From a virus, in the IMG/VR virus record IMGVR_UViG_3300047444_000198, positions 12,396-76,395 of that record: a stretch of 64,000 bases of DNA. One strand, 5' to 3'. The position numbers and the translations under genes were made by a program. Shown piece after piece: positions 24,627-44,103 of the stretch; within the stretch, counting starts at the first letter, position 1; the number at the start of each line of letters is the position of its first letter. A model generated the notes under the pieces. It did not search any database and was not told the origin of the DNA. It was given only the letters and a program-made list of their open reading frames with translations.

Positions 24627-24699
24627 GAGAGAAAGCCTATCAGGTAGTTGAGTCAACAGGTGGTCAGGAGGCATAGGCCATTCGGCCTATTTGCCCTGG

Positions 24700-25590
24700 T
24701 CAGGCGTGGTGCATGGGGTACTGCCCACGGTAGTCCGGCGTGCTCGCGAGGCACGGTTCCCCCACGGTCTCGACCAGGTTGGCACCACACTCGGCGCACG
24801 CTTCCGACAGGATGGCGTCCACGGTCGTGTAGCTAGGCGCTACCACCTTTCCGGACGGACGGGTCACGGGCCGACCGAGCACGTCGGCAGCTTCCTCATA
24901 GGTGGGATACCACCAGCCGTGACGGGCGGCGCACTTCGGGCCGTACCCGGCCGCGAGGGACCTGTCGTCGTCAATATCAAGTCCGCAGTTACAGCAGAAG
25001 CCGTGCAGCTTCCCGAACGCGGACGCTTCCTCCTGGCTCATGGCATGGGCGACGCCCTCGCTCACGTAGCGCTTGACGATGGCGACACCACCCCGCACGT
25101 AGTCGAACGTGCGCCCACGGAGCACCTTGCACGCCTGATAGCCGTTCTGAGTCGTGTACAGCTTCCACACCGCGGACCCATCGTCCAGCGTGTAGAGACC
25201 GTTATCGAGCACCAGGGTAGCGGCGGCGACCGTAGCCGCATCCGCCACGGCGCAATCGCCCTCATGATGGAACGTGAGCCACTTCCCGGTGCTTGACTTC
25301 TGAATCCACCCAGCACCGGCCGGAACGTTCCCCTTGCACGTCTGGCACTTTCCGGGGTAGCCGTTCGACCGTTTGGCCGGAGCGGTAGCCGTGGCGGCGA
25401 CAGTGTTCTTCATGCCTAGAAGCGCCTCGATCATGGCGCTAGCCGTGCCGGACTTCCCGCCCGTCAAGGTGCTCTCTAGTTGCGCCATGGCGGCGGGGAC
25501 GTCATTGATCCCGGTCTGGTCGGCGGGGATCTGCTGGAGCAGCGAACGGATGAAAGAGATCTGCTTAGGGGAAGCCGGTGCGTTGGTCAC
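24700..25590 (-). CDS. DUF6011-like zinc-binding protein
   Basis: CCNCGLDIDDDRSLAAGYGPKCA; N-terminal ASPKQISFIRSL; leaderless GTG at 25590. Confidence 0.7.
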   Translation of the reverse strand: MTNAPASPKQISFIRSLLQQIPADQTGINDVPAAMAQLESTLTGGKSGTASAMIEALLGMKNTVAATATAPAKRSNGYPGKCQTCKGNVPAGAGWIQKSSTGKWLTFHHEGDCAVADAATVAAATLVLDNGLYTLDDGSAVWKLYTTQNGYQACKVLRGRTFDYVRGGVAIVKRYVSEGVAHAMSQEEASAFGKLHGFCCNCGLDIDDDRSLAAGYGPKCAARHGWWYPTYEEAADVLGRPVTRPSGKVVAPSYTTVDAILSEACAECGANLVETVGEPCLASTPDYRGQYPMHHA

Positions 25591-25655
25591 GATCATGAGT
25601 CTAGGCGCTTTCTTAGGGTCCCGTATGGGCCATACGGCCCTTCTGTTGACTCACC

Positions 25656-28600
25656 TTAGGAGGGGCGGCGGGCCGTCACCACCAGGGGCACCGCGAGACC
25701 GTGCGCCACAGGGCGCCGCAGGCGTCCGGAGCACGTGTCGAACGTGGTCACCAGCACGTGGTCACCACGGTCCTCGACCTTGTGGACCGTGGAGACGTGC
25801 GCGAGCACGTCCCCCGGCCGCAGGTCACCGGCCAGCACAACCGTGCTCACGCCGTCACCTCGGCGTTGCGGCGCGCACGCCGCAGCTTGTCTTGCAGGCT
25901 CATAGCCTCAGCGGCCAGCGTGGGCCAGGCGTTGGCCTGGCAGTTGTGCCACTCGCTCGACAGGGCGAGGATCAGCGTGCTCATTTCGCCCGCTGTGAGC
26001 GTGATCGTGGTGGGTGCGTTGGTCATGAGAGTATCTTACCTCCAAGAGTTGAGTCAACAAATAGGCCATTCGGCCCTTTGGCTCCAAGCTCCAAGGGCTA
26101 GCCCTCCCACTCACTGAGGAAGGCCAGCACGTCAGCCGTGTCCTGTGACGTAGCTCCAAGCACGCGCCCTGTGATGGTGCACGCATCGCCCGCACCGGTC
26201 ACCGCGTACAGGTCGCCTCCAAGGTCGTAGAGCACGTGGAAGTTGTACGCACACATGAAGTTGCGCGATACGAAACGGCGGCGCAAGGCAGGCGTGACAG
26301 GGACGTCACGCTCGATCCGCGGCCAGGCGTCAGCCGGGAAGGGCCGCAGGTCCAGGTCCAGCATCACGGCACACGGTTGGCACGTGGGCACGTCACCCAG
26401 GATCGGATGCGAGACCACGCCCGCAGCGGGGCGCACGCACCGGGCGAACCACTTGCACGTGGTCACTTGACCGGCTCCAAGGGCGCCGATGCGAACAGGT
26501 TGCTTGCGTAGTACACGCGTCGCGACTGGTCGCCGTCCCGGTCCAAGAACCGAAAGCCCTTGTAGTTGCCGGTGTCCATGAGCACGTCCTCGATCATGCC
26601 AGCGACCGCGTAGCGGGCCTGCACCTGGTCATCGGCCGAGTTGGCGAGCATGTTGTTGGCGAAGTCGAGCACGCGCTTGACGTTGATCGTCTTGCGAGCC
26701 TTGACGTTGGTGCTGGTCGAGTAGGGCATGAGAGTATCTTACCTCCTTGTTGACTCAACTACTATGGTCCATTAGGCCCTGCTTCTGGCGCTCGTACACA
26801 GCGCTGGGATGTTGTGCCATGGCGCACGCCCTGCACACAGAGACACCACCCATGCGGGTCGTAGCCTCCTGTGAGCACGGACGCAGCCACTCGTCAGACG
26901 ACTGGCAGGTCACCGGTACACCACCCGGACCTCACGAGCCTCTAGGCACTCCTTGACTGTGAAGTCAGCGCGCACCCGGCCACCCTTGTGAGCGAGGTTG
27001 TAGCCGACAGCGAACGTCGTGATGCCGCGGTTCTGTAGCACTCGGATGGCCGAGAACGTAGGCAGCGGTTGGCCGATGTGGTCGGACCAGCCGAGACCGG
27101 GGTAGAACACCTGTTCGATGCGAGCATCGCTCGCCCTCGTGTTGAGGTTCCGACGCGACAGGTGGCGACGGATGGGCAGCGGGGGAGTGTTGTGATTGGT
27201 CATGAGATGGCTTTCATCTGCGTGATGGACCGGCGTGCGCTCTTGCGGCCGGGATGCGGACAGGTGACGATCGCGGTGGGCGAGCACACACCGATGGTGT
27301 GCTGGCAGGTCGGGCACTGGTAGGTGGTCATGAGTACAGCTTACTTGACTGTTGACTCAACACCTATGGGCCATTCGGCCCTAGCTACCGTCAGCACGTG
27401 AGCGAAATGTTGGTGCAGCCGGTCAGCAGCGCGCAGCGCCGCGGCCTCGTTAGCCTCCTGTGAGACCAGGGACGAACGAACCGCCAGGCCGGTCGAGTCG
27501 AGCGTGACAAAGCCGACGTGGTAGCTCACGGTGCCACTCTCGTAGGTGATCGAAGCAGCATCGATGATGCCACCTGGTACGTCGTAGGTCACCAGTGTGG
27601 TGTACGTGCTCTCAGTCATCCCTCGCCCCACGTCTGCACCACGTCACCGGGGAGCACGCGGAACGTGCCACCGCGGATCGTGCCGAAGTCGATGGTCAGC
27701 CACTTGCGGCCGACGATGGTCACGGTGCCGAAGCACACCACGCCGAACATGGCGGGATGGAAGGCCTCGACCGTGTCACCGACCTTGAAGTCGGAGAGTG
27801 TGAAGGTGGTGGTCATGGTGTCCATTCTAGTGAGTAGTTGAGTCAACAGCTATGGGCCATTCGGCCCTAGAGCAGACCCTCGGACGTAAGCAGCTTCACC
27901 AGGTCCGCGAGTCCACCCTCTAGCTCCGTGGCATGCGAGACGAACGCAAAGCGCTCACCGAACGTGAAAGCAGCGTTCACGAAGCAGCAGCTACCCCCGG
28001 CCATCATGCCGACGTGGCCGATGGCCTTGCCCTCGCGCATGATGGCAGCGCTGGACTTGTTCTTGCGGCGAAGCGTCAACATGGTACCAGTGTACCGGAC
28101 GTGTTGACTCACCACCATGGGCCATTCGGCCCCTTATCTGGTGGTACCAAGTGCTGTCAGTGTCAGTGCGCTCGTCGGACCGTAGCGAGCACCGCAGGCC
28201 AGGGCACCACCCCCAGACTCGGTCCACCATGTGGCGACAGGGGACCAACCTGGTCGCTACGGCCCGAACAACGCACTGACACTGACGGTCTAGAGCCCTT
28301 CCTCGTTGGCGAAGCGCTGCATCATGTTGACGCAATCGTCGCGGTAGCGCTCAGCAGCACACCACGCACTCTCGCCCTTGAACGTCTTGCCTCGCGGCCA
28401 CGTGGTGGCCCACTCAGGGCGCTTGGAGACGCTGACACGGTGGGCGCCATCCTCGTAGCGGTAGCCACCACGTGAGTCGAGCAGCGGCCCGGTCTCGATC
28501 TGCACGGCGCCGATGCGTGAGCCGTAGTAGCCGTTCACGTTGGTGCGGGCGATCGTGCTCCAAGGGCCTGGTGTGCTGTAGCGGGTCATGGGATCAGTCT

Positions 28601-31600
28601 ACCGATCCTGTTGACTCAACGCATGAGTCATTCGGCTCATTGCATGCGAAGGCAGGATCGCACTCGTCCTCGCACGCCGCGCAAGGCAAGGGGCACGGTT
28701 CATCGTGGCGAGGATCGTGACAGTGCATCATCGTGCGCTCCAAGCGGCACGCTTGGCCTCGTCCACGCGCATCCGGTGCTGGGCCTCCAAGACCTGGGAC
28801 TCCAAGACCTCACGCTCCGTCCAGCGCTTCACCTCGGAGGCGATCTGGTCAGCCGTGTCATTGCGGCCGATCATGGTCCACACCATCATCGAACCGTTGA
28901 CGAACGCAGGCCACGCGATCATCTCGTCGGCGTGCTTCTTGCACGTCACGAACGTGGCCCACCGCCATCCCATGGTGTCGGCCTCGTCCAGTACCACGTC
29001 GTTCAACAGGCAGACGACGATGCGGTTGGCACGTGCGCTGCACCGGCCAGAGCCCTGGCACAGTCGGCCAGCGGCCCGGTTGCGCTCGCAGCGCTCGTAT
29101 GTCTCTTGGCTCACGCTGTATCCCATGAGAGTCAGTCTACACTCTCTGTTGACTCAACGCCTGAGTCATTCGACTCATTGTGGATGCGAGCCTCGGGGCC
29201 AAAGCCGCACCAGCACACCCGCATGCCGTACAGATCACAGGGATTGAACCGATGGGTAGCTGACGCGGCCGGGAAGTCATCCGGCGTGACCACGGTGAGC
29301 ATGGTGGAACGCTTGGGCCGTTTCGGCTCATTGGTGGTCCAGCCCTCGTCGCTCTCGTTGTCGCGGTACTGGATGACCACCAGGGCACCGGGATTGATCT
29401 CCTGGTAGATGGCAGCCGCACTACGAGGGTGGTAGGCACTCGTGGGATCGAACGGGCCGTGCTGCATGGAGCAGCCATTGACCAGCACCATGTACTGGTA
29501 GCGGACCATCTTGTCGGCCATTAGAACGTGCCCTCGTGCTCGGTGTAGTCGATGCCATCGAGAGCCGCAGCCATCTCGGGCGTGATCAGGGTGTAGCGCT
29601 GGATATAGACGCCATGGTCCACGTCCTCGTCAGTGATGACGACCTCACCCGAACGGATGCGCTGGACTAGCTCGTCAGCGACCTCGTAGTCCTGGATGGT
29701 GTCCAGAGCGAAGGTATCCCAATCGCTCACGAGGTTGACAACCTCGCGGCCTCCAAGGAACTCATGCAGGAAGGCAAAGGGCGCACCGTCGTGGACACCA
29801 GGATCACAGCCGTCGCCATCGGTGTTGTCGAGCCAGATCTGGCCGTCGAAGCGGACGACAGAGCCGCACTTGTAGCAGATGCTCGGGGTGATGGTCATGA
29901 ATCCTCCTGGTCGTCGTCCCACTCGTCAGGAGTGGGACCGTTGAAGCGGCGCCCGTTGATAGACGACGCCCGGAGACGCTGACCATCACGGAACGCTTGG
30001 CGGTCCGCATCGTTCCAGCGGTGGAGTGTGCGGCTCATGTTGAACAGTCTACTCCAAGAGTTGACTCAACACATGGGCCATTCGGCTCATTCGGCGCAGA
30101 CCTCGGCCCACTCCAAGGGGAACAGAGCCACCACCGCATCGTCGGACCCTTCACAGGCTCGCAGGTAACGCTTGATCAGCGCTGACTCGTCCTCGGTGCA
30201 GTCGATACCGTCGCGCTTGCGCTGGATGGTGGCCGTCAACTCACTGAGGATGACCACGTTCGGGTTGGTCTCGGGGCCGTCACCGACCACCATGCCGGTA
30301 CAGGCCTCGTGATGGTCACTCACCACGCAGCCACACTCGGGGCACAGGGCCTCGCAGGGGTAGGGCGCGTGGTCCATCTCGTCGTACGAGGCGCCGCACG
30401 TAGTGCAGAAGTCACCGCCACCAGTGTGAGCATGATCCTCGCCCCGCACGTCCTCGTAGGCCTCGATGCGGCCATCCAGGAGCGCCTGACCCGTTATTGA
30501 GCCGGGGCCAACGATCTGGTTGTTGTTGGCGATGCGCCGGTTGACGTCAGCGATCATGGCGAGCACCGTGGCCCTCGTGTCCAGCAAGGCGTTGGCGTAG
30601 CCCGCCTGGTTGGCCCGCTGCACGTTGTTGCCTGCCTGGTCGTACTCACGGCAGCGCTGCTCGGCGTAGCGAGCCTGGGCAGCCAGGCTGTCAGCTAGTT
30701 CTTGCAGGTTGGTGGGGTTGGTCATGATGAGAGTCTACCTCCCTCTGTTGACTCAACGCCTGAGTCATTCGACTCATCCTCAGGCTTCCAGTTGAACGGG
30801 CGACTGAGGCTCAGCTTGCCTGCGTTCACAAGCTGCTGGATGGCACCAGCGGCCTCGTCCGAGACGTTGGCCTCACGGATGACGTGGAGCAGGTAGGCAG
30901 CGTCCAAGGCCCGACGACGCTGGGTAGCGGCCCTCTGCTCAGCCTGTTCGGCCTCAAACTTGGCACGCTGGGCGCCGATGCGCTTCTGGTAGGTCTCGAA
31001 GTCAACGACCTGGCGCTTGTTGACCAGGTAGTACTGACCCTCTCGGTAGGTGCTCGGCTCACCCTGAGCCTTGTCGGCCTCGACCGTCACGACCAGGACG
31101 TAGTCACCGCCCCGCGACTTGTAGCCGTACCAGTCCTCGATGGACTGGCCTTGCCTCATGTGGACGGGGCCGGGACCACTGCCACTCATGTTGGCCCGAA
31201 CGACGCGCACGGTGGTCCACTGCGACTTGTCGGCATCCCAGCCAGTGCGGCCGGAGCGGTTGATCAGGGCGTAGACCTTGCGGCCCTCCCACATTTCCTC
31301 GTATTTCATGATGTAAGTCTACCTAGTTTCGTAGGGTTCGGGAATGGGTCATTCGGACTGTTAACTCAACACCCTCCAAGGGTGTCAGTGTCAGTGCCTC
31401 ACCACGGCCCGCACAGACCGTGATACCGCTCGGTCAGGCCGGAGCCGTCACAGATCGACCAGCGGTAGCGGTAGACCTCGCCCTGGGCGATCGGCCCGGA
31501 GCAATCGTCGCACTGGTACTCCTTGCGGGCACGCTGTAGGCGTGTCACCACCAGGACCGTGCCGACTTCCTCGTCGTGATGGACCCGAAGCTCGCTCATC

Positions 31601-32917
31601 CGTACGCCTCCATGATGGCAAGCTCGGCCTGGTACTTGACCAGAGCCTCGGCCGCACCCTTCGCGAGCCGGTTGTAGGCATCAGCGGCGCGGTTGACGTT
31701 CTGCGTCAGGCTCGCCCGACGTGCACCCTCGGCATGTGCGGCCTCGTCGCGCAGGTAGCGCTGGACCGTGGCCTCGACCGCCTCCAAGAGGGGCCGCACG
31801 TACGTCTTGGGCGCTCCACCCATGGCTCGGGCTAGCTCGTAGTCCACCGTGCCGTCCTGGGGGATCACGCCGTAGACCTGGCTGTTGCTGTCGCCCTTGG
31901 CGTCGCGCTCGGCCTGGTTGCGGGCGTACCAGTAGCCCTTGGGCTGGCCCTGGTCGTTGGTGTGGATGTACCGGATGGCGTACTCGTTGCCCCGGTAGAC
32001 CAGCGTGCCCTCTACGAACACGTCATCGGTGCTCATGGCACACACCATGAGTCCACCGGTCACCTTGCCGTGGTTCACGTCCATCTGGACGTTGGCGACC
32101 CGCTCGTGCCACTCGGGCACCGGAACGGAGAGGGGGAGAGTTTCCTCAATGTCGTAGGTCTTGGTCATGAGCACAAGTCTACGCTTGTTGAGTCACCACC
32201 GCATGAGGCAAACGGACCATTTCGTCAGGTTCCGTGTCAGTGTCAGTGGCCTCGATGGTGGGATCACCGTGCAGAGCAAACGTGTGCTCGCAAGGCTCAC
32301 CCTTGGGCGGGGCGAACATGATGCGCTCCACGTCCAGCCGGTCGAGAGCATCCAGCAGAGGCACGCACGCCGTGACCATGGCACCCAGGATGAACAGGGC
32401 GCCGATCATCGCCGCGACCTTGTGCGTGCCCTCCGCGAAAGCGCCTGTGTACACGTAGCCGCCGACCGTGAACAGGACACCGGTAGCGCCCATCCAGCAC
32501 CAGAAGCGTTTGCGCTGGCTCATCGTGCGTGCACCGGGCAGTGCTTCCCCTCGTCGTGCAGGATGCCACCGCCCCGAAGCTCACGGCCGGTGCACAGAGA
32601 CTCCATGGCCTCAGCACACACGGCCGGATTGTCGAACGTGAGCAGGAGCGTGTACGGACGGGTGCCGTACTCAGCTTTGGCTACGAACGCCACATTGATC
32701 CAGTGCTCACGGTACCGATGCTCTTGTGTCACTCGATCAACCCCCGGTGTCGTGCTTCGCCCTCCAAGCAGTCTCGCATGAGGTCGGTTCCCCAATCCTC
32801 TCCAAGACGACGACGAAGCTGGGCGTCCGTCATGTCGCGCACGTCCAAGCCGTTGATCATGGCCTGGCCCTTACGGGGACGCTCACCGGGTCCACGTGTC
32901 TGCTGGTAGTCGCTCAC
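25656..32917 (-). other. Array of about 20 small hypothetical genes, most with their own promoter unit
   Basis: For example 25847-26026, 26098-26466, 26463-26729, 27616-27816, 27867-28082, 28290-28589, 28728-29126, 29132-29521, 30087-30725, 30722-31309, 31596-32168. Confidence 0.7.
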
Positions 32918-32973
32918 GATCACAGTCTACCCGCCATTGTGTTGACTCACCATGAGCCATCCGGCCCATCTTG

Positions 32974-33028
32974 TGGAGCACCGGGGAGTCGAACCCCGCT
33001 AGCTACCCATGCCCCGATGGAGTGCCCC
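32974..33028 (-). ncRNA. 55-nt tRNA-like RNA with Ala-type acceptor stem (G3:U70) and full T arm but no canonical D/anticodon arms
   Basis: GGGGCAC pairs with GTGCTCC then discriminator A; T arm CGGGG-TTCGACT-CCCCG; intergenic. Confidence 0.6.
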
Positions 33029-33364
33029 GTCAGTGTCAGTGCTCAGGCCAGCACGAAGAACGCCAGCGTGACCACCACCATGGCCGCAAACAACACCTTG
33101 CCAGCCAGGCGATGGCGTACTGACCAGGGGTAGCGCTTGCGGTAAGCACGGCGCTTCACTCGGTACCGGCGCTTGACGTCACGGTCCCAGGCTCGGCGCA
33201 TCTTGCGCTCACCACGCCGTGTCTCGACCACGTGCATCCGGCCGTAGACGTCTACAGGCACCTTGATCGAGCAGAGGGGCACGTCGCGAGAGGACCCAGC
33301 GGTGCCGTTGACGGGAGGAGGAGGACCAGTCAACGGCACCGATGAGGGTGGGGGAGGAGGCAAG

Positions 33365-33946
33365 TCAGACCCCGGCTCGTGCCGCACGCTCACGGGTGAC
33401 AAGTACCAGCCACGCGCCTCCAAGAAGGAGGGCAATCGCTCCAAGGGCCAGCGGAAGCGAGACGGTACCGGTCGTGGGTAGTTCCGTAGGGACGTGCGGT
33501 GCAGGAGTGGCAGCACTGTCCGGCGTACTGACGTCCGGCGTGGTGCTCGGCGTGGGGGGAGCAGTGGTGGCAACGGTGGTCACCACGCTCGGGGGCACGG
33601 TCGTCTCCACAACGCTGGGGGGAGTCGTGGGGGGCACCGATGATTCTGGCGTGCTCGTGACAGGTGTAGACGTGGGAGGCACGCTGGACTCAGGCACGCT
33701 GCTCGGTGCGCTGCTAGGCGGTACCGATGACTCGGGCACAGACGAGACGGGCACGCTGCTCGGCTCGCTGCTCGGGGTGCTGGACGGCGGCACACTGCTG
33801 TCAACCTCCGTGCTGCTCGGGGTGCTGCTCGGCGTGGACGTGGGCGGTTGGTAGCTGTGACTGCCGTGGGCCGACGCAGAGCCGATGACGAACGCACTCC
33901 CGCCGAACATCACGGCACCAGCCAGTAGCAGGTGCTTGATGTGCAT
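33365..33946 (-). CDS. Sortase-type LPxTG cell-surface protein, S/T/P-rich
   Basis: Signal peptide ending ASA; (P)SSVP repeats; LPTTG + hydrophobic helix + RERAAR. Confidence 0.8.
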   Translation of the reverse strand: MHIKHLLLAGAVMFGGSAFVIGSASAHGSHSYQPPTSTPSSTPSSTEVDSSVPPSSTPSSEPSSVPVSSVPESSVPPSSAPSSVPESSVPPTSTPVTSTPESSVPPTTPPSVVETTVPPSVVTTVATTAPPTPSTTPDVSTPDSAATPAPHVPTELPTTGTVSLPLALGAIALLLGGAWLVLVTRERAARAGV

Positions 33947-33996
33947 GGTTCGGCACCCTATCAGGCTCCAAGATTCATAGGGATAGGCCGTTTGCC

Positions 33997-34656: not shown

Positions 34657-35090
34657 GCCTGGCCCATGATGTTGCGGGCGTCCCGAATGAGAGTCACCAG
34701 CGTGCCCGGAGCGCCGTCAGTGGTGAAGTCGTCAGCGACGTGACGAACGAAGCTCGCAAGCTCGCCCACGTCGTACCCCTCGCTGGGCGAGTCTCCCTCG
34801 GGGCTGTCGCCGTACATGAGCCAGTTGCTCAGCGTCTCGTCCAGGTCGGTGATCTTCTCCATGGCGTCGTCGCCGTAGAACTTGATCTCACAGCCAACAG
34901 AGCCGTAGACGATGTGGAGCGTGTGACCGGTGCGACCGATGACCTCGACGCCATTGCTGGTGTAGCGCTCGGGCACGCTGGTGAGTTGAACGCTGGTGAC
35001 GGTGTCCAGCTTAATCGTCTTGCGCTGGCCGAAGGTGTCCCACAGGCAGATAGCTCGGGCGTTGACGACGTAGTCGGTGTAACTGCTCAT
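34653..35090 (-). CDS. Hypothetical protein
   Basis: Leaderless ORF under a promoter unit. Confidence 0.65.
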   Translation of the reverse strand: MSSYTDYVVNARAICLWDTFGQRKTIKLDTVTSVQLTSVPERYTSNGVEVIGRTGHTLHIVYGSVGCEIKFYGDDAMEKITDLDETLSNWLMYGDSPEGDSPSEGYDVGELASFVRHVADDFTTDGAPGTLVTLIRDARNIMGQA

Positions 35091-35094
35091 GCAG

Positions 35095-35484
35095 TCAGTC
35101 TAGTTGCGTTGACTCAACAGCGCATGAGTCGTTCGGCTCATCTTCCAGCACGTCCCACACGTTGGTCACGAACTCGACCAGGGGCAGGATGGGATCACCG
35201 CGCTTGCACGTCCACTGCACCAGGCCCAAGCCGGTCAACCGGCGCACGTGACCTTGTACACAGGACGTGCTGAGACCGGTCCTGTCGCGCAGATCGTGAA
35301 TGCTCTCCACGCCGTCCATGACATGGAACAGAAGCTCGGTAGCAGTCGGACCCACGGCCTCGAAGCCACGCATGCGCCAGTAGCCGATCTGCTGCGGTCG
35401 CCAGTTGGGACCTAGCTGCTGCGGCGCAGAGGGCGGAACTACAAGAGCCTCCGGAGAGGCAGGGTCATCCGGAGGCTCCTGCAT
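35095..35484 (-). CDS. Winged-helix/HTH protein
   Basis: SIHDLRDRTGLSTSCVQGHVRRLTGLGLV. Confidence 0.6.
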   Translation of the reverse strand: MQEPPDDPASPEALVVPPSAPQQLGPNWRPQQIGYWRMRGFEAVGPTATELLFHVMDGVESIHDLRDRTGLSTSCVQGHVRRLTGLGLVQWTCKRGDPILPLVEFVTNVWDVLEDEPNDSCAVESTQLD

Positions 35485-35709
35485 CGGTTCCAGTGTAGCG
35501 GCTTTGGCACCCTCTACACATGGGCCAAACGGCTCATTCGACTGTCAGTGTCAGTGGGCGAATCGTGATGACTCACCATGACAGGAACGTGTGTTCTTAC
35601 CCCTCCTTGGGGGTGCTGCGTGGTGCAGGCTCGGGCGGCGCAGCATCGAGCACAGCATCGAGCAGTTCGCCGGGGTTGGGCAGGGGCTTGACGTCGAGCG
35701 GTTCGTCAT

Positions 35710-36963
35710 TCATGAAGGCCACGCTTTCGTAAAGATGTTCTGCTTCATGTCCCGGTAGATCTGGTACTTGGTACCACTTGTGGCCTGCCACCCAAAGCTG
35801 TCCTCTCGACCGTCGCCGGTCTTGCGGTCGATGGCACAGAACCAGAAGAACGGGCCGAGACGGTTGGCGTACTGGTTGAGGCAGCCACCGGGGAGGTAGG
35901 CGTTGAGCGCATCCTGAGCCCGCTGTGACTGCGTGGCCTGATTGCCACCCACGGCGCTACGGGGACAACCGGTCTCGGTGGTCCACAAGCTCACGCCCCG
36001 CCCTGGTGCGTACTTGTCGATGATGGCGAGCGCCGCCGCCACTGCCTTGGGTGACCATGACGGCCAGTTACCCACGTCCTTGCACGCCGTGTCGGTGTCC
36101 AAGTACGGGTGCCAACCGACAGCATCGCAGGCCGAGAACAGACCTTTCTGGCCGTAGCTCTCGATGGTGGACAACGCGCCACACCCTGGCGGGGACGGCT
36201 GGCCGGTGGACTGGAACACCGTGTCGGCCGTGGACAGGCCTCCGCTCACGACGATCATCTGAGGCACTGACGCCTTGATCGCCGGGTAGGCAGCCTTCAT
36301 CATGCGCGTGTACTTGCCTCGGTAGGCGTCATCCGTGGACGGCTGGCCGGTCCAGAAGCCGGAGAGATTCTGCTCGTTCCACAACTCGATGGCGGTCACG
36401 CCCATGTTCCACAGGTGCCCCGCCGCCTTGCTGCACCAGTCGGCATAGTCCCCGTCGTTGGTGGGCGGGTTCTTGTCGTTGGACGCCCCGTTCATCCATT
36501 GAGGCAACATGTACAGAATCGGTAGAGGCTTGATTCCGCGGGTCAGGGCCACTTGGACCCAGCGGTCAGTGTCGGCCCAGTTGTAGACGCCCTTCTGCGG
36601 GGACACCTGGCGCACCGGGTAGTCACCACGCCACCAGCCCGCGCCGACGTCCTTGATTATGTCGCCCTGTTGGGCCAGGAAGTCAGACGGCACGCCCTGC
36701 ACCTGCTCTAGCGGCATGGAGAACGCGCCATAGCGCTGGCCGAGAGTCTGTGTGGTCGTGGGCGGCTGGATCGGGGGCTGGATGGGCGGCTCAACCGGGG
36801 GTGTGACGGGCGGCTTGTACGCCGCTAGGGCGTCAGCGTCGGCATTGATCGCCGCCGCTGCGTTGTTGACGTTGGTCGCCTGTTGAGTCAGGGCGGTGCC
36901 GACGTTGGTTAGGGCGGTGGCCTGCTTACGCAGGTCATCGATGACTGGTTGCAGGTCACTCAT
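35710..36963 (-). CDS. Clan GH-A glycoside hydrolase (GH5/GH39-like)
   Basis: Acid/base IELWNEQN and nucleophile WTTETG motifs, YNW..TD, GWHPY; N-terminal coiled coil and Pro linker. Confidence 0.8.
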   Translation of the reverse strand: MSDLQPVIDDLRKQATALTNVGTALTQQATNVNNAAAAINADADALAAYKPPVTPPVEPPIQPPIQPPTTTQTLGQRYGAFSMPLEQVQGVPSDFLAQQGDIIKDVGAGWWRGDYPVRQVSPQKGVYNWADTDRWVQVALTRGIKPLPILYMLPQWMNGASNDKNPPTNDGDYADWCSKAAGHLWNMGVTAIELWNEQNLSGFWTGQPSTDDAYRGKYTRMMKAAYPAIKASVPQMIVVSGGLSTADTVFQSTGQPSPPGCGALSTIESYGQKGLFSACDAVGWHPYLDTDTACKDVGNWPSWSPKAVAAALAIIDKYAPGRGVSLWTTETGCPRSAVGGNQATQSQRAQDALNAYLPGGCLNQYANRLGPFFWFCAIDRKTGDGREDSFGWQATSGTKYQIYRDMKQNIFTKAWPS

Positions 36964-38681
36964 GCAACCGAACCGTAACACGTCACCACTTACCCCTCAG
37001 CGACCAGCCGTTCAGCCTCCACGAACAGATCCAGGTCGAAGATGCGTACCAGGTGGAAGGCCCGACACAGGTCGCCGCCGTCCTCGTCAACGATGATCCG
37101 GTTGTGATCGCCCTTGACCATGGCATCGATGGCGTCGCGGCAGTCCGGGATGGCGTTGGGGCACTCCATCGCCCACGTCATCCACCACGTGAGCGCATGC
37201 TCGGTGCCCTTGAACAGGATCATCTCGGGCAGGAGTTGAGCCAGCGGGTGTTCAGTCATCCGTCCAGCCTCTTGCACGTGGCGCATTCCGGAGCATCTGA
37301 TGCGGTGCCCTTCCACGTGGAGTACGTGATGAGCACGCCACACAGGGTCAGTTCAGCACCACCAGGGATACCACGGACGTGGTGAGCGGCGACGTGCTGC
37401 TCAGTTGCCAGGCCCTCGGCATTGACCGAGACGTCGGGGTAGTTGACCGTAGTCATGACGTCAGGTAGTTCACGACGATGTTGCGGGCGTCGGGCCACTC
37501 GATCTCGACCTGCTCGGCGTAGACAGCAGCCGTGATCTCATCGGAGAAGGGCACCGAGAAGTGCTCAGGCCCAGCGAAGTGCGGACCATCGATGGAGAAG
37601 GTGACGGAGTGGGTGGGAGGCATGGTCTCAGTCTACTCCCTCTGTTGAGTCATCACCATGGGTCATTCGGCCCTCCGTGGTCTGCGCGCCATACCTCGTA
37701 ACGAGCCTTGACGATCACCAGGACTGTCAGTGTCAGTGCACTCAACAGCGCGATGCGCTTCATATCGTGCCCCTGAGCATCACACTCTTGACCGTGACCG
37801 TTATCTCGGGACTCAGATCTTCGGCCTCAGCAGCGATGGCCTCGGCCAGAGTGTTGATGTTGAGCGTCGGCTCGTCAGGATTGGGCGGCTCGTGATGCAC
37901 CACCCGCAGCGTCACCTCGTACTCGTAATCGTGCGCCTTCATGCGTACGGGCCGCTCGGATTGTACGGGCGCACCGTCACGTCACCAGGCTTGTCCCACA
38001 CCACGGTCCCTGATTCCAGGTCCAGGATGTACGGGGCATTGTCCCACGTGGGCGACTCCATCCAGTCGGTGAGCCGCAGAGCATCGTCAGGCGCGAAGCC
38101 CTGACGCTCCATGGTGCGGCGAAGGGACGCCCGCCGCCATGCCTTACGAAACGTCTGACGCTTGCCCATGCTCTGTCCCTCTCGTCTCTTTGACCCACCC
38201 TGCCCACCAGGACAGAGCATCGTACAGGTTCGGTACCTCGGGGAAAGTCTCGGGGTGACCGAACCAGGTGGAGCGGACCACGCTATTGCCGTGCACGTCG
38301 TAGCCCTTGAAGATGGCGACGTAGTCACTGGTCGTGACCGTCTTGGCCCGGTGGAACAGCGACCGGCGCACGTCCACCAGCCACGCGTACTCGTAGTCGA
38401 AGTCAGCGAACGCCTGTACCCACATCCACGTGGTGTCGTCCACTCGGGTGCCCTCGGCCGGTTGCACGGCAGCCAGCTTGTTCAGGATGCCCGCTAGCTC
38501 GTCGTTCACCAGATCGGTGCCGTGGATGGCCCGACGTTGGGCCGCAGTAGCAGTCATCACCGCCCCAATCTAAAGACGGTGATGACGAGAGCGAGCAGAG
38601 AGACCGGACGGACCCGCCGCTGCTCACGGTACCGGAGCGCTCGGGGCTGCTTCCGCAGCCGCATGGGAGGCATGGGGAGCA

Positions 38682-39485
38682 TCAGACGGCCACCTTCCCC
38701 TTGTTGGCGTTGATGGACGCCATGAGGTCGGACAGGAGGTCAGGACCGGACGGCTGTGCGTCAAGGACCACCGCAGGCTCGACACCCGCCGCCTTGTTGT
38801 CCACGTAGGTCTGGATGGCCTGCGACGTGGTATCGACCAGTACCGGGGCGCTCACGCCCACGCTCTCGATCAGCGCCAGAGCAAGGTCGCTCTCCTGCTT
38901 GCTCACGGTCGCCGTGGGCAGATCGATGGGCTGGCGGATGGCGTCGGCCGTGACCACGTACCGGAGGTCCCCGGCGCAGTCCAGGATGGCGTACCGGGCC
39001 GGTCCCCGCATGGCGAGCTTCACCAGCGCGACCACCTTGCGCTCCTTCATGGCAGCGAGCAACAGCGTCAGCGCCTTGACACCGGACGGGTCCGACTTGC
39101 CCTTCACCCGGCGTGGCCTGATCTGGTACAGGCCTTCCGTGAGGTACTGGCCCAGGTTGCGGGTCTGGATGAACGTCTCGATGACGGCGATGCCCTTCGG
39201 CATGGTTGCGTCAACGATCTCGTCGTCGTCCAGCGTCACCCACGCACCGGACGTTGCCTCAGCACGGCGCACCACGTCAGCGCGATCGATGATGACACCG
39301 GTCGTCTTGTTGGTGAGCGCACGGCCCACCGGCTGCCAGGCGCCCTCAGCGTCCTTGGTGAACTCCTTGCGGGCGATCCGCACTTCCTCGGTGCCGGTGT
39401 AGGCCGAGACCGGAATGTTGAGCAGACCCCAGGAGATGGTGAAGGAGGTTGTGGCCCGGTTGGGAGTGGGGGCGATTGCTTTCAT
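38682..39485 (-). CDS. ku: Ku-like DNA end-binding protein
   Basis: TISWGLLNIPVSAYTGT, WVTLDDDEI, LLLAAM, DLALALIES, DLLSDLMASI follow the prokaryotic Ku layout. Confidence 0.8.
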   Translation of the reverse strand: MKAIAPTPNRATTSFTISWGLLNIPVSAYTGTEEVRIARKEFTKDAEGAWQPVGRALTNKTTGVIIDRADVVRRAEATSGAWVTLDDDEIVDATMPKGIAVIETFIQTRNLGQYLTEGLYQIRPRRVKGKSDPSGVKALTLLLAAMKERKVVALVKLAMRGPARYAILDCAGDLRYVVTADAIRQPIDLPTATVSKQESDLALALIESVGVSAPVLVDTTSQAIQTYVDNKAAGVEPAVVLDAQPSGPDLLSDLMASINANKGKVAV

Positions 39486-39549
39486 GTCTCTATTCTACTC
39501 TTTCCGTTCCTTGTACGTATGGGCCGTTCGTACCATTTGGTACCGCCCC

Positions 39550-40596
39550 TCACCCGAATGGTGAGGGGCTGTCGGCGAAGTTGTCGCCAGAGCCAGTGAG
39601 CGGGTGCCGGTTGTCGGCAGCGTTCGCGATCAGGCCCTTGAACGACCGGGACTCGACAATCTCATCGAACACCAGTTTCTCGTCGGCCGTGAACATGGAG
39701 CGCAGGACGAACAGCGCCATGTCAACGCCATCCTCGATCACGTCTGAGCAGACCCGCATGAGCGCGCTGGTACCAACTGGCGTCCGGATATGGCCGGTGG
39801 CCCTCGCCTGGCGCAGAGCGTCACCCAGCGTGCGAACCGCATCGTTAGGGATCAGCCGGTGCTCGACCGTGGGATCGTAGGCCCATTCCAGGTGCCGGAA
39901 CCGGTTGGCGAAGGCCTCATTCAGCGCACCCGCGCCCCGGTAGTTGGGGTTCATGGTGCCGACGATCCACAGGTCGGGACTGATGTGCACGGTCTCAGGC
40001 ATGAAGCCGTCGCCGGGGACCTTGACGGCCTTGGCCCGGTTGGTGAACGAACGCCGCCAGTCGGCCATGGGATGCAGGGAGGACGTGACCCGCTCCGGCA
40101 TCATGTTCACTTCGTCCAGGTAGAAGATGCCGCCGATCCTGGCAGCCATGTCAGCGATGCCGGGGAGCCAGACGATCTGCTCCTGGCCGGTCTCGGGATT
40201 GGTCCAGGCCGTGGGTTGACCGAACATGTCGAAGTCGGTGATGCCGTTGCTGGCCGAGAGGGTGAACACCGGGACCGGGAGCACCTTGCCATCACGGTTC
40301 AGGCCCATGGCCTCCCCGATGTGGATGGCGAGGACGTTGACGAGCATCGTCTTGCCACCCTGCGTGTCGCCCACCAGCAGGACGTTCTCCCGGCTGGCCC
40401 ACTTCGCCAACAGGTACTCGACGTCAGTCTTGCCATTGGGCAGCTTGCGACTCACGTACTCCTGCACCAGCGCCGGATCGGGCCGGAACATGTCGAGACG
40501 AGGGTCATCGATGGTCAGCGCGACCGATTCCTCGTGCGTCACCGTCAGGTGGCGGGGAGCGGTGCGCTTCATCACTTTGGTGGGCTGCTCGGTCAC
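39550..40596 (-). CDS. MoxR/CbbQ-NirQ-like AAA+ ATPase
   Basis: LLVGDTQGGKT, FYLDEVN, GTMNPNYRG, LNEAFANRF. Confidence 0.9.
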   Translation of the reverse strand: MTEQPTKVMKRTAPRHLTVTHEESVALTIDDPRLDMFRPDPALVQEYVSRKLPNGKTDVEYLLAKWASRENVLLVGDTQGGKTMLVNVLAIHIGEAMGLNRDGKVLPVPVFTLSASNGITDFDMFGQPTAWTNPETGQEQIVWLPGIADMAARIGGIFYLDEVNMMPERVTSSLHPMADWRRSFTNRAKAVKVPGDGFMPETVHISPDLWIVGTMNPNYRGAGALNEAFANRFRHLEWAYDPTVEHRLIPNDAVRTLGDALRQARATGHIRTPVGTSALMRVCSDVIEDGVDMALFVLRSMFTADEKLVFDEIVESRSFKGLIANAADNRHPLTGSGDNFADSPSPFG

Positions 40597-40776
40597 TGTC
40601 GTCCTCTCGTCTCAGGTTCGATGCCCATTCTAGCAAGGTCCCGTACCAGGTGCATGGGCCGAAAGCACCATTCTGTTGACTCACTACTCTCTCACGTGTT
40701 GACTCACCCACCACCAGAGCCGAAATAGGTCTCCCGGCCCATGTAGTGGGTACGGTACCCTGCTAGACTGGTGCTC

Positions 40777-42765
40777 ATGACCGAACCAGACGCCACCCGC
40801 ACGCTGCGGGACGTGAGGCGGCAGCAGGCCAGTGAGCGCCGCCGCCTGAAAGAACAGCAGCAGCGGACCCGAGAGCGGATGGATGCCGTCTCGGACAAGA
40901 TGAGCACTGAACAGGCTGAGCGCATCCGCCGCCACAACGCCGTGGTAACGGGCATGGTGCCCCGCATCACCGGGGCCGTGGACTCGTGGGCAGGCAAGCG
41001 CGTGCCCATGAACGTCCAGCACCCGGCCAGCCGGTTCTTCGCCGCTACGGACTTTGAGCGCATCACGCTCATGATCCCCGAGACCGAGACCATCGACCTG
41101 GACTTTGCGGCTGACCTGCGTGGACTGGCGTATCACGAGGCCGGACACATCTTGAAGTCGGTCCCCTTCGCCACGCTGGTCAACGCCGTCATGCCTCTCG
41201 ATGAGAACGTGGCGAGCCACAGCAACCGCATGCGGAGCCTTTCCAAGATGGTCGATCTGGACCAGGACAAGCTCCACCAGGCGTGGAACGTGCTGGAAGA
41301 TCAGCGCATGGAGTCGGCCATGGTGCGGGAGAGCACCAACCTCGGCCGGTACTACAACGTGATCGTCTTGGAGCACGTGCTGCACGGCGGGGTGTCTGAC
41401 ATTGCCTACATGTGGGTCTACGGGCGCAAGCACGTGGATGCCGACGTGCGGGCGGCGGCTCGCGCCGCCATGGTCGTCCAAGAGGGTGAGGCAACGGTCC
41501 AAGCCGCTGAGCGCCTGATCGACACGTACAAGCAGTCCAACGACCCGCTCGTCATGTGGGAGTCGGTCGTCAAGTTCGGTCAACTCATCGGGCACTGCTC
41601 GAATGGCGGCGACCTGGGCAACGGGGCCATGGATGACCATGAGGAAGCCCGCAACCCCGAACCCAAGCCGTTCGACCTTGATGAGTCAACGGAGCCGTCA
41701 CCAGAGCCAGACAGTGAAGGCGAGTGCGACGGCGACGGCGGTGACGGTGAAGATGAGGAAGGCACCGGAGCGCCCGGTGGCGACGGTGACGACAACGACA
41801 GTGAGGATGACGCTGAGGGTCAAGAGGGTGGTGACACCGCTGACCGCCAGGCTCACGGCGATCCCGATGCCTTCCAAAGCGACACCGGAGCGTCCAAGAG
41901 CGTCAACGATGCCGATTGGAGCCGCCGCCTGGTGACTGACGCTCTCAACAAGGCGAGGGAGTCGCGCAACCGGGACGGGAACGTGCTGGGTGACGTCAAG
42001 GCGTACAACCAAGCCGTGTCCGAGGGCCGGGGGAAACTCCCGGTGGCACGCATCCCCTACACCGTAGAGCCTGACGCCATGGTGACCAGCCAGGCCGTCA
42101 AGCTGAATCAGGCTCTCCGCAACCTCATGGAGCAGGCGCGTGCTGAGTCATCGCCCACGTGGCAGACGCAGCAGCGGGCGGGCGTGCTCGACGTGCGGGC
42201 GTACATCACCCGCCAGCCTGGCGAGATGGAGTTCTACAAGCGCTACGCCGAGGGCGGCGACATGCACCTGCCGAACATGGCGGTGAGCCTGTTGCTTGAC
42301 GGGTCATCCTCCATGGATCACCAGGCCCAGCGCCTAGCCATCGCCGCGTTCGGCGTGAAGTCGGCCTGTGACGTGGTGGGCGTGCCCTGCACCGTCACGG
42401 TCTACGACACCGATGCGTACCTGTTGTGGGATGACGAGGATCGTCCGATGGACGTGCCGTACAACATCCTCCCCAGCGGTGGTACCGATCCGAAGCGGGT
42501 GCTCGACCTGCTCGACATGCAGAAGTGCGACAAGGCCAACCACCTGGTCATCATCATGACTGACGGTGCCTGGTCACACCAGTGGCAGACGTCGCTCTCG
42601 CTGGCGCACTACGCCGCCGCCGACCGGGACATGGTCCTGTTCTACCTGGACTGTGACCCGGCGTACGGGCCGCAGGGCACCGACACGTGCTCGCTGGTGC
42701 AGCGCATCGATGACCTACAGGAGATTCCCCGGTTCCTGATGCGCTACCTCGTACGGGCGATGTAA
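40777..42765 (+). CDS. vWA-domain partner of the AAA ATPase (CobT-like) with HExxH motif
   Basis: YHEAGH, WNVLED.RME, acidic linker, MIDAS LLDGSSSM, GGT, IMTDG; leaderless ATG 40777 after TAGACT. Confidence 0.85.
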   Translation: MTEPDATRTLRDVRRQQASERRRLKEQQQRTRERMDAVSDKMSTEQAERIRRHNAVVTGMVPRITGAVDSWAGKRVPMNVQHPASRFFAATDFERITLMIPETETIDLDFAADLRGLAYHEAGHILKSVPFATLVNAVMPLDENVASHSNRMRSLSKMVDLDQDKLHQAWNVLEDQRMESAMVRESTNLGRYYNVIVLEHVLHGGVSDIAYMWVYGRKHVDADVRAAARAAMVVQEGEATVQAAERLIDTYKQSNDPLVMWESVVKFGQLIGHCSNGGDLGNGAMDDHEEARNPEPKPFDLDESTEPSPEPDSEGECDGDGGDGEDEEGTGAPGGDGDDNDSEDDAEGQEGGDTADRQAHGDPDAFQSDTGASKSVNDADWSRRLVTDALNKARESRNRDGNVLGDVKAYNQAVSEGRGKLPVARIPYTVEPDAMVTSQAVKLNQALRNLMEQARAESSPTWQTQQRAGVLDVRAYITRQPGEMEFYKRYAEGGDMHLPNMAVSLLLDGSSSMDHQAQRLAIAAFGVKSACDVVGVPCTVTVYDTDAYLLWDDEDRPMDVPYNILPSGGTDPKRVLDLLDMQKCDKANHLVIIMTDGAWSHQWQTSLSLAHYAAADRDMVLFYLDCDPAYGPQGTDTCSLVQRIDDLQEIPRFLMRYLVRAM

Positions 42766-42802
42766 TCGTGACTCAACACCCACTGACACTGACAGGCAGG
42801 CC

Positions 42803-43216
42803 ATGAACAGCGACACGGCAGGACTCATCCTCAACGTCTACCTCATCATGCGGCGGCACCAACGGGTACTAGCCGCTACCGGGGACAACCGTCTGGCGAA
42901 CAAGGCCGCATGGCACACCTACGGGCTGATCTGGCTAGCCGGGTGGGCGTTCATCGCCCCTCTCGGCTGCCTGTTCCTGGCCCTGTTCTCACCGGGCTTC
43001 CTGGTGGCCGCAGGCATCCTCGCGCTGCTCATCCCGGTCTGGTTCTACGCCTGGTCGGCTGATCGTCGCTGGGAGGCCACGCTGAGTGCTCAGGCCATCG
43101 AACCGCCGCCGATCCCTGAGCAGTACCCCATGAGTGCCCCTGAGCGCACCATCACCCAGCCGGTGCTCACGGCGTTCTACCGGCCACCGGCCAAGCAGAT
43201 CAGGTCGGCTCGATGA
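42803..43216 (+). CDS. Membrane protein
   Basis: Two hydrophobic segments. Confidence 0.6.
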   Translation: MNSDTAGLILNVYLIMRRHQRVLAATGDNRLANKAAWHTYGLIWLAGWAFIAPLGCLFLALFSPGFLVAAGILALLIPVWFYAWSADRRWEATLSAQAIEPPPIPEQYPMSAPERTITQPVLTAFYRPPAKQIRSAR

Positions 43217-43302
43217 GCCGAATGGCTCTGTCGTGACTCACCAGGAGCCGTGTATACTGAGTCAACACAGAACCTCTAGGACAGGATGGAGCACAAGACG
43301 AG

Positions 43303-43716
43303 ATGGCAACGATTCTCAGATCGTATGACTGGTCACAGGTCAGCCGAGCCAACAAGCGGGCCAGGAGCCGGAGCTACCCCTGGGATGACTGGTTCGATGG
43401 CCGCATCTGGCAGCTAGAGCCGAGGGTGGACTTCGATGGTCCTGCCGTCAGCTTGGAGCGGGTCATCCGGACATCGGCCAACCGTCGCGGTATCAAGGTC
43501 CGCATCCGCATCGATGGCGACGTCGTCGTCGTGCAGCGCCATGAGGACGGCGATCCCTTCCGGACGATCACCAAGTCCCCGAGCTTGAAGTCGATCAAGG
43601 CGGCGAAGGAGGCCGAGACGAACGGCCACAAGCCCGAGCCGGTCAAGGTCTCGGCCACGAAGAAGGTCGCTCCCGCCACGCCTCGTAAGCGCGTGTTGAA
43701 GCGCGTGAGCGTCTAG
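43303..43716 (+). CDS. Hypothetical protein with basic tail
   Basis: YPWDDWFDG motif; preceded by a promoter unit. Confidence 0.65.
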   Translation: MATILRSYDWSQVSRANKRARSRSYPWDDWFDGRIWQLEPRVDFDGPAVSLERVIRTSANRRGIKVRIRIDGDVVVVQRHEDGDPFRTITKSPSLKSIKAAKEAETNGHKPEPVKVSATKKVAPATPRKRVLKRVSV

Positions 43717-44103
43717 TACCACCCAGCCTCCCCTAGTAAGAGGGGGCGTGTAGAAGCCAGGAACCCGCAACCGCATTTGACCCGAAGCACCGCCCACCGG
43801 ACTCACAGAGTCCAGGGCACCGCTGGCAGGCACAACCGGGCGCGTAAGTGTTCCTGGCTTCTTGCGTTGTCAGTGTCAGTGCGTGCTATGGTCCCGTACC
43901 AGGTGCAAGGGCTGTCCGATCCCTCCACCAAGGGTCGTGCTCCCCAGCTAAGGACTACCGCCAGTCCGAGACGGCCCTTGCACCTGCAAGAGTGGAGCGT
44001 TGAGTCAACAAGATGGGCCGAATGGCCCATGTCAGGGTGGTACCACCGGGTGTATACTGGTCCTTGAACCTGAGGAAACCATCCCCACTGAAAGGGCCAG
44101 CAC

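Follow-up and report, generated by a model that had tools for sequence, protein, structure and literature searches.

Which signals govern a long array of mostly leftward genes in a large phage when nearly the same short block of sequence stands in front of each of them? This question is raised by a 64,000-nucleotide (nt) stretch of DNA, here called the window, which comprises bases 12396-76395 of the 76,395-bp virus record IMGVR_UViG_3300047444_000198, a linear record that is about 79% complete. The original prediction described an array of about 22 genes or mini-operons, each with a three-part promoter unit, and this description is upheld by 19 full modules and five units in altered form. We suggest, with a probability of roughly 0.6, that a compact promoter module heads each of about 22 genes or mini-operons, that the starts are leaderless, and that two words of the module, named box A and box B, are sites for factors. 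Where transcription begins, which factors bind and whether these activate or repress is what we infer from the sequence.

A full module is composed of box A (consensus RATGRGYC-GAAT-GRCCYAT), a spacer of 21-22 nt, a -10 hexamer of the form TAnnnT, 6-7 nt and an ATG or GTG. Measured between the first base of box A and the start codon, the 19 modules are 54-56 nt long, and in 19 of 19 this codon opens a real open reading frame (ORF), such as those of Ku at 39485, of a 145-amino-acid (aa) protein at 35090 and of a 372-aa protein at 14334. In the window, box A followed after 22-23 nt by TANNNT was found 19 times against 0.02 expected, and 18 times with a start codon 6-7 nt downstream against 0.0 expected; the same composite was found 0 times with spacings of 17-21 nt and once with 24-28 nt. 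The fixed distance between upstream box and -10 that had been claimed is confirmed by these counts and by the distance d from the first base (G) of the box A loop to the -10, which is 32 or 33 nt in 21 units. Moreover, in the aligned -10 column T1, A2 and T6 are invariant. TAGACT is the commonest hexamer, and the previously listed variants TAAGAT, TAGAAT, TACACT and TATACT are all present, with TAAGCT, TACAAT and TAATCT besides.

The spacer usually holds a second word, either the palindrome GTTGASTCAAC (box B, core TGASTCA) or another sequence such as box C. There are 18 units on the minus strand (24624-39536), a divergent pair at 40594-40779, two plus-strand units at 43213 and 43999/44013 and two further plus-strand units at 14282-14336 and 16684-16738. 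In five of all these units the core from box A to the -10 is present in altered form. The units and the helicase gene are as follows:

24624..24690, minus strand: SNF2 helicase; box A ATAGGCCGAATGGCCTAT; exact box B 24647-24657; TAGGCT 24639-24634; 7 nt; GTG 24626; d = 44 nt, one helical turn above the other units
23082-24626/24674, minus strand: SNF2 helicase gene; homologues are 511-528 aa long, consistent with the GTG start at 24626
25588..25642, minus strand: DUF6011 protein, 296 aa; box C GGACCCTAAGAAAG in the spacer; box-B-like site (1 mismatch) upstream at 25645-25655
26024..26078, minus strand: exact box B; TAAGAT; leaderless ATG; 59-aa ORFan
26727..26781, minus strand: exact box B; TAAGAT; leaderless ATG; 88 aa
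27329..27383, minus strand: exact box B; TAAGCT; leaderless ATG; 43 aa
27814..27869, minus strand: exact box B; TAGAAT; leaderless ATG; 66 aa; TAG stop of the upstream gene in the left arm of box A
28080..28134, minus strand: box B (1 mismatch); TACACT; leaderless ATG; 71 aa
28587..28640, minus strand: box A form ATGAGCCGAATGACTCAT; exact box B; TAGACT; leaderless ATG; 99 aa; unit and its upstream flank conserved in the relative G001 at 5441-5892
29124..29178, minus strand: exact box B; TAGACT; leaderless ATG; 132 aa; within the 3' end of the upstream ORF
30036..30090, minus strand: exact box B; TAGACT; leaderless ATG; 47 aa, then two further genes
30723..30777, minus strand: exact box B; TAGACT; leaderless ATG; 212 aa; within the 3' end of the upstream ORF
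31307..31361, minus strand: box C in the spacer; box-B-like GTTGAGTTAAC at 31360-31370 abutting box A upstream; TAGACT; leaderless ATG; 195 aa
32166..32220, minus strand: box A loop GTTT; box B (1 mismatch); TAGACT; leaderless ATG; 190 aa
32915..32969, minus strand: box B (1 mismatch); TAGACT; leaderless GTG; 62 aa
35088..35141, minus strand: exact box B; TAGACT; leaderless ATG; 145 aa; within the 3' end of the winged-helix gene
35482..35537, minus strand: no box B; TACACT; leaderless ATG; 129-aa winged-helix protein (Lrp/AsnC/MarR-like), candidate regulator
37621..37675, minus strand: box B (1 mismatch); TAGACT; leaderless ATG; 56 aa, then genes of 117 and 423 aa
39483..39536, minus strand: no box B; TAGAAT; leaderless ATG; Ku-like protein, 267 aa
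40594..40671, minus strand: box A read as ATGGTGCTTTCGGCCCAT (40671-40654); 21 nt; TAGAAT 40632-40627; leader of ~24 nt containing GAGAGGA; GTG 40596, AAA_5 ATPase
40717..40779, plus strand: divergent; left part GAGCCGAAA, 10-nt insert, right arm GGCCCAT 40736-40742; 21 nt; TAGACT 40764-40769; 7 nt; ATG 40777, 662-aa protein; box-B-like sites 40675-40685 and 40698-40708
43213..43305, plus strand: box A; spacer with GTGACTCAC; TATACT 43253-43258; GAGTCAAC right after the -10; leader; gene start 43303, 137 aa
43999..44106, plus strand: exact box B 43999-44009, upstream of box A 44013-44030; 22 nt; TATACT 44053-44058; 45-nt leader; GTG 44104, DUF3987 primase/helicase-like protein
14282..14336, plus strand: AAGGGTCGAAAGACTCAG; 22 nt; TACAAT; 6 nt; ATG; 372 aa
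16684..16738, plus strand: AGAGTCCGTTCGGCCCAC; 22 nt; TAATCT; 6 nt; ATG; 126 aa

The range first assigned to the array contains most of these units; the last two lie outside it. Analysis of G+C at third codon positions places the genes of 24.6-40.6 kb on the minus strand, and the stretch would represent a small-gene and DNA-metabolism arm with mostly leftward transcription. The named products are the SNF2 helicase, the DUF6011 protein, the Ku-like protein, the AAA_5 ATPase, the DUF3987 primase/helicase-like protein encoded on the plus strand and the 129-aa winged-helix protein (35095-35484), whose helix-turn-helix resembles that of Mycobacterium tuberculosis Lrp/AsnC regulators. For 20 other small array proteins no Pfam or PHROG match was found. 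The suggestion of host-takeover or anti-defence cargo finds no support, the named cargo being one of replication and repair, and an early time of expression would follow from gene content only.

The window has a G+C content of ~63% and carries two WhiB-like genes, both on the minus strand (9365-9646 and 20933-21205). To our knowledge this family is confined to Actinobacteria and their phages, and because the phage encodes two such proteins we judge that its host is actinobacterial. Nucleotide-similarity and protein searches of a cultured-phage collection found no close relative, and Arthrobacter phage Waltz, a distant helicase match, lacks box A. The closest metagenomic relatives are P0001, at 91% identity, and a 119-kb contig holding P0121. 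In a metagenome scan with the helicase alignment, generic SNF2 motifs dominated and the best match had 41% identity.

Box A was also found in other genomes. A helicase-profile scan of IMG/VR recovered G001, a syntenic relative of 118,220 bp, together with a fragment of it; its proteins are 35-87% identical to those of the present phage (G000). The box A units of G001 lie at 1090, 3248, 4452, 5538 and 7897, with d of 42-43 nt in five of five, and their spacers contain a palindrome, GTTGTGTTCTGACAACA or GTTGTGACAAC, which ends 6-7 nt before the -10 and is centred at -27/-28. A pattern scan added G003, a 171,330-bp phage of 70% G+C with 14 copies of box A in a cluster at 8.8-33 kb (reversed control, 0), whose sole protein shared with the present phage (E<1e-5) is a WhiB-like one. 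In the spacers of G003 stands an element of the PafBC type (tGTCgg-N10-TAnnnT), e.g. TGTCGC-N10-TATGAT, and the transcripts have leaders; a fourth contig (67.8 kb, L400) likewise combines box A with a PafBC-type element. It was also observed that the small genes of G003 behind box A and PafBC-type promoters (L345-L347) occupy ~8.8-37 kb, that its leaders have a conserved hairpin, GGCCGCCACGGGGGCGGCC, ahead of the ribosome-binding site, and that a cluster of GAAC-N4-GTTC dyads resembling LexA boxes lies at 33.7-37.1 kb.

In 401 sampled genomes of one actinomycete class, four of the eight matches to the exact composite precede DUF222 or HNH endonuclease genes (L357, L358, L362 and L359), which belong to three of the 401 genomes (G049, G069 and G314). 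Three of these loci present GGGAATGATCCGAATGRCCTAT, 22 nt, TAGTAT or TATGAT, 7 nt and ATG, with a LexA-type box, TCGAACACATGTTCGA, over the start (one being a near match), and in one DUF222 gene of this group the spacer matches the PafBC element as well. At the fourth locus a LexA-like dyad occupies the spacer, and 6 nt separate the -10 from the start.

These occurrences show that the putative promoter arrangement of box A and -10 is used beyond this phage lineage. Since the box recurs in G003 and before a few host DUF222/HNH genes, its factor more likely comes from the host or is linked to a WhiB-like or winged-helix protein that these phages share; the hint is of a host protein, or of a WhiB-like or small winged-helix protein common to these phages. 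A wider proposal, which we consider tentative and rather doubtful, is that box A is an undescribed actinobacterial upstream promoter element that replaces the -35 and is read by a conserved host factor or by a WhiB-like protein on sigma-A region 4. It would then be the common chassis of unrelated phages and of some DUF222/HNH selfish genes, with spacer words (the PafBC -26 element, phage palindromes) swapped in, that is, a modular 'sigma adaptation' platform.

Is box A read as DNA or as RNA? Its two forms, GGGCC...GGCCC and TGAGTC...GACTCA, were at first suggestive of compensatory change, and a strict terminator-plus-promoter scheme would make box A a stem-loop of the RNA, ending or attenuating the upstream transcript or protecting the 3' end of it, the distance of box A to the -10 being a product of the common descent of copied cassettes. 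Such an arrangement is found in the promoter-early stem-loops (PeSLs), mobile regulatory cassettes of T4-type phages (Arbiol et al. 2010, PMC2839356; Comeau et al. 2014, PMC4122927), whose stem-loops terminate transcription (PMC2839356). Copies of the form GGGCCGAATGGCCC do fold at -11 kcal/mol, the upstream stop codon often precedes or lies within box A, and hairpins of the GGCCGAAAGGCC type are common downstream of genes in all taxa. However, among 48 copies of box A from three phages the second to fourth 'pairs' hold uncompensated mismatches (16 C.A, 11 T.C and 12 A.C), which affect about a third of the copies, and fold energies range from -11 to -1.4 kcal/mol, the stem being absent in some. 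No U-tract was found after box A, a T-rich run following only one copy (26076), and the number of terminator-like sites, 11 where 7.5 are expected, shows no enrichment; mycobacterial polymerase reportedly needs a U-tract for termination. Moreover, in six of the 18 minus-strand units the upstream ORF spans the whole module and its stop lies 15-48 nt past the loop, so that termination would cut the message before the stop:

29124-29178, 30723-30777, 32166-32220, 35088-35141, 27329-27383 and 37621-37675, minus strand: modules inside the 3' end of the preceding ORF

In these six modules the boxes are coding as well and supply the C-termini of the upstream proteins. The lack of a U-tract and the units within upstream ORFs argue against box A being mainly a terminator. 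Conservation is seen in the word CC-GAAT-GRCCYAT, whose right half is best kept, and in its distance to the -10, and the loop and right arm are conserved as sequence across unrelated phages. The spacer between box A and -10 is unrelated in sequence among the units and constant in length, which points to selection on spacing, not to descent. Judged from its copies, box A is a sequence motif and not a conserved hairpin; a hairpin or terminator was rejected as its explanation, and the stem-loop scheme as a whole is unlikely. A scan of the genome collection that allowed a GAAA loop returned generic hairpins in all phyla and was uninformative.

With the -10 placed at -12 to -7, box A is centred near -43 or one helical turn further. 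The uniform distance that had been claimed applies to most units and fails in the helicase unit; the deviant units shift by about one helical turn, as in that unit, in the 10-nt insert within the box at 40717-40779 and in all five units of G001. The earlier proposal of a box that replaces the -35 is supported to this extent, that the upstream box keeps a constant distance at which a factor of the -35-replacing or class-II type would be expected, class-II activators sitting at about -43. In the promoter module that we favour, box A would act as a double-stranded DNA sequence that stands in for the -35, held 21-22 nt above the -10, and would most likely be bound by a dimeric factor aiding the polymerase where a -35 contact would otherwise do so. 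No conservation is visible in the -35 region of the aligned units, and canonical sigma-70 promoters are not enriched (3 sites against 3.1 expected), as predicted for host-type promoters without a -35.

Several other identities for these elements were tried and rejected. CCGAAT has no conserved -35 upstream of it that would make it an extracytoplasmic function-type -10; for a phage sigma factor, neither region 2 nor region 4 was found; and the WhiB genes and TAnnnT geometry point to bacteria, against an archaeal B recognition element/TATA promoter.

Box B was found in 11 exact copies, all within 24647-44009, against 0.01 expected, and in 36 copies genome-wide when one mismatch at most is allowed, against 1.04 expected. 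It is a perfect 5-1-5 palindrome with either central base, for which orientation is irrelevant, as would suit the site of a symmetric dimer. Box B ends 5-12 nt (mode 9) short of the -10 and has its centre near -27. Thirteen units and the helicase unit have it within the spacer, three have it upstream of box A (25645, 31360 and 43999), and in the remaining ones it is absent or reduced to half-sites. A second, independent palindrome in the spacer had been proposed and is present; that it floats is right for the upstream copies, for the divergent region (40675/40698) and for its absence at 39529, but in the spacer the float covers only 5-12 nt from the -10. Other words also occupy the spacer slot, among them GGTGGTACCACC and box C (GAACCCTAAGAAAG), which is common to two units with box B upstream and occurs in G001 too. 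Box B units head mostly small ORFans; the Ku, AAA ATPase, DUF6011 and winged-helix units have no box B in the spacer.

As separate observations, TGASTCA is over-represented four-fold in the genome (52 copies against 12.4 expected), half of the 52 copies being outside the array; GASTC (172 against 245 expected) and GAWTC (62 against 89) are under-represented; and the TGAGTC/GACTCA arms of the second form of box A are the same word as the core of box B.

Because G001 carries a different palindrome in the place of box B, the protein that binds box B is probably a phage-specific regulator. Box B itself is most simply read as an operator for repression or shut-off that lies between the -35 and -10 positions, and the sign could be the reverse. 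In the promoter module proposed here, a dimeric regulator specific to this phage would bind box B and would most likely repress or shut off the ORFan units or, alternatively, activate them in the style of SiwR/PafBC; units with another word in the slot, or none, would make up several regulatory classes on one frame.

The roles of box A and box B could also be swapped, since actinobacterial -26 palindromes can be activator sites: box B at -27 would adapt sigma-A in the SiwR/PafBC or MerR style, and repression, shut-off or insulation would fall to box A. SiwR acts as an activator from a palindrome of 19 bp that lies at -26, between the -35 and -10 positions (PMC10693628), and PafBC reads a -26 element with the consensus tGTCgg-N10-TAnnnT, the GTC being at -27 to -25 (PMC8635444). 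The centres of box B here and of its counterpart in G001 agree with such positions, and true PafBC-type elements stand behind box A in G003, in the 67.8-kb contig and in front of one host DUF222 gene. Nevertheless the units differ by as much as 7 bp in the offset of box B, three of them have box B upstream of box A, about seven apparently complete promoters lack it, and in the window the PafBC consensus is not matched: GTC stands 8-14 nt before the -10, mostly 11 and not 12, and is missing in the four units with the GACTC (S=C) orientation. An exchange of roles thus appears improbable. As for other identities, box B was rejected as a -35 hexamer, TTGAGT/TTGACT being only 9-16 nt from the -10, and also as a PafBC element, a collapsed HAIR (HspR-associated inverted repeat) site of HspR or a MerR-type dyad, the latter three on a reading of the sequence only.

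Concerning the start of the transcripts, a start codon 6-8 nt past TAnnnT is what characterises a leaderless promoter, and the gap is 6-7 nt in 19 units. This is the distance that transcription start at the start codon requires, which supports the leaderless reading; a -10 of the host sigma-A type would set the first nucleotide on or next to the ATG or GTG. Most units lack a Shine-Dalgarno sequence. The leaderless starts of the original prediction are thus retained for these 19, but three units (genes 40596, 43303 and 44104) have leaders of 24-45 nt with Shine-Dalgarno-like purines. Because these long-leader units keep the geometry between box A and -10, the fixed partner of box A is the -10 and not the start codon. 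Furthermore, plus- and minus-strand copies alike are oriented toward the downstream gene.

Inverted repeats around the -10 were noted in some units (GGATC..GATCC, GAGAGT..ACTCTC and TCAGG..CCTGA; regions 28596-28601 and 29134-29139, and 14322-14327). They are weak overall (P about 0.009), with at least 5 bp in 3 of 19 units.

Cluster K mycobacteriophages have start-associated sequences. That the block is such an element, acting at the RNA level in the translation or processing of long polycistronic transcripts, TAGACT being no promoter, has in its favour the adjoining start codons, GGAGG-like purines 12-14 nt before the ATG in some units and the weak repeat around TAGACT, but is highly improbable given that the invariant positions are those of a -10, that most units have no Shine-Dalgarno sequence, that long-leader units keep the distance from box A to TAnnnT and not that to the start codon, and that copies on both strands point at the gene they precede.

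Some further features were seen beside the modules. Genes 24626, 25590, 26026 and 30725 begin with near-identical codons, ATG/GTG ACC AAC GCA/CCC CC (MTNAP/MTNP), and 9 of the 19 leaderless genes begin with ATGACC; the homology between cassettes may extend past the start codon into the genes, or these codons may be preferred in leaderless translation. The 13-mer CACTGACACTGAC has 26 exact copies in the genome, 16 on the minus and 10 on the plus strand (including 28168, 31396, 32248, 33041, 35556 and 37738 of the window). It often stands directly upstream of box A, e.g. in units 28127, 31354 and 32213, and in G001 CATTGACACTGAC occupies this same position. CACTGACACTGAC is a possible fourth part of the cassette, of an optional kind. 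A tRNA-like 3' end (GGGGTTCGACTCCCCGGTGCTCCACA), called by neither ARAGORN nor Rfam, adjoins unit 32962 on its upstream side (32974-33028, minus strand).

Several points weigh against the proposed promoter module. Many actinobacterial promoters function with a -10 alone, and box A might be dispensable for initiation. Searches for HTH_3, tyrosine integrase and sigma regions 2 and 4 found none in the 79%-complete record, and with them no regulator gene was identified; the winged-helix assignment has E-values near 1e-3 only. Eighteen box-B-like sites (1 mismatch) lie outside promoters, and the 5-12 nt range of box B offsets suits a repressor without proving one. Strict phasing is not universal, since in G003 the distance from box A to -10 is 32-36 nt. 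In the host genomes the eight matches to the exact composite compare with five for the control pattern. Finally, box A was present in only 1 of 30 randomly sampled DUF222 loci; a general host regulon is unsupported, box A was rejected as a general DUF222 promoter element, and because of this proportion its presence on DUF222 genes is taken as belonging to one sub-lineage and not as a family trait.

The motif strings of the module had no match in the literature searched, and the closest known kind of element is the PeSL of T4-type phages. Like PeSLs, the array has many copies of a small composite intergenic module, each with a host-type promoter and a dyad, which stand before ORFans in a plastic, non-structural part of the genome, with upstream stop and downstream start codons at the module edges and a gene order that differs between relatives. 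However, in PeSLs the sigma-70 promoter is complete, with both -35 and -10, the region upstream is AT-rich, a GC stem-loop terminates transcription and the leader has a Shine-Dalgarno sequence, whereas the array has no -35, is mostly leaderless and keeps its geometry within 1 nt; its dyads are conserved as sequence (putative protein sites), not as structure, and are not terminator-like. The plastic ORFan setting and permuted order of PeSLs are thus found here, but neither the sigma-70 -35/-10 nor a stable stem-loop is, and the GC-rich hairpin plus U-tract of an intrinsic terminator is likewise missing.

Leaderless -10-only sigma-A promoters are known in Actinobacteria, e.g. from the M. tuberculosis transcription start map of Cortes et al. 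2013 as cited in PMC8635444. The array shares with them TAnnnT, a start codon at the expected transcription start and the lack of a -35 consensus, but those host promoters are individual, whereas here one module is reused ~22 times, its conserved upstream box keeping a constant distance and the word in its spacer being exchangeable. The 'sigma adaptation' promoters of PafBC and SiwR also lack a -35 and join an element near -26 to a canonical -10 (PMC8635444, PMC10693628); box B differs in being a perfect 11-bp palindrome with a floating offset and no match to tGTCgg-N10-TAnnnT, and an upstream box at -43 is described for neither, although other phages with box A do carry a true PafBC-type element in the spacer slot. 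T4 middle promoters, mentioned in PMC8635444 as a case of sigma appropriation by AsiA/MotA in which the MotA box replaces the -35, are similarly phage promoters that join a host -10 to a specific box standing in for the -35; however, the MotA box, with its centre at -30, depends on two phage proteins, and box A, at -43, is found in unrelated phages and before a few host genes.

The stoperators of L5/D29 and the conserved inverted repeats of phiC31 are multi-copy repressor sites of temperate actinophages. As in those systems, a short site is repeated through early or non-structural genes, in or beside promoters, and one protein could control many units; box B, in its 11 exact copies and 36 with at most one mismatch, is such a many-copy site, and there is one winged-helix candidate regulator. 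Stoperators, however, are asymmetric and orientation-dependent whereas box B is symmetric, neither an integrase nor a Cro/CI-type repressor was found in this 79%-complete record, and the site is one slot of a larger module. Taken together, the array is a leaderless variant of known phage promoter cassettes and not a PafBC set, and what is particular to it is the box A word, shared with unrelated phages and with host DUF222/HNH genes.

The modules may have a secondary role, which is partly shown, in that their near-identity over 35-55 nt would offer homology for the exchange or reordering of cassettes. Nucleotide similarity between this phage and G001 is limited to single genes. Gene order is 648, 1147, 3476, 3758, 4810, 5468, 6383, 7038, 7950, 8595 in G001 and 3758, 3476, 648, 1147, 6383, 4810, 4810, 5468, 7950, 8595, 7038 in this phage, with lineage-specific genes between. 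Cassette order is thus permuted between this phage and this one relative; the cassettes probably mark points at which gene order differs, and we infer recombination at the modules. The 'terminal repeat' of G001 was considered as a physical genome end beside the array and rejected, the overlap being only about 127 bp and the assembly probably circular.

If the modules work as read here, a large actinophage runs some forty mostly unknown genes from one rigid, leaderless frame without a -35, and sorts them into classes by the word placed in a single slot. At 55 nt the modules are short enough to be tried as synthetic parts in Mycolicibacterium, Corynebacterium or Streptomyces and would be useful as compact leaderless expression elements. 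The permuted cassette order extends the idea of PeSLs as recombination joints from T4-type phages to actinophages. Moreover, the sharing of box A by unrelated phages and host genes points to a factor or promoter class in Actinobacteria, in which initiation without a -35 and sigma adaptation are active questions.

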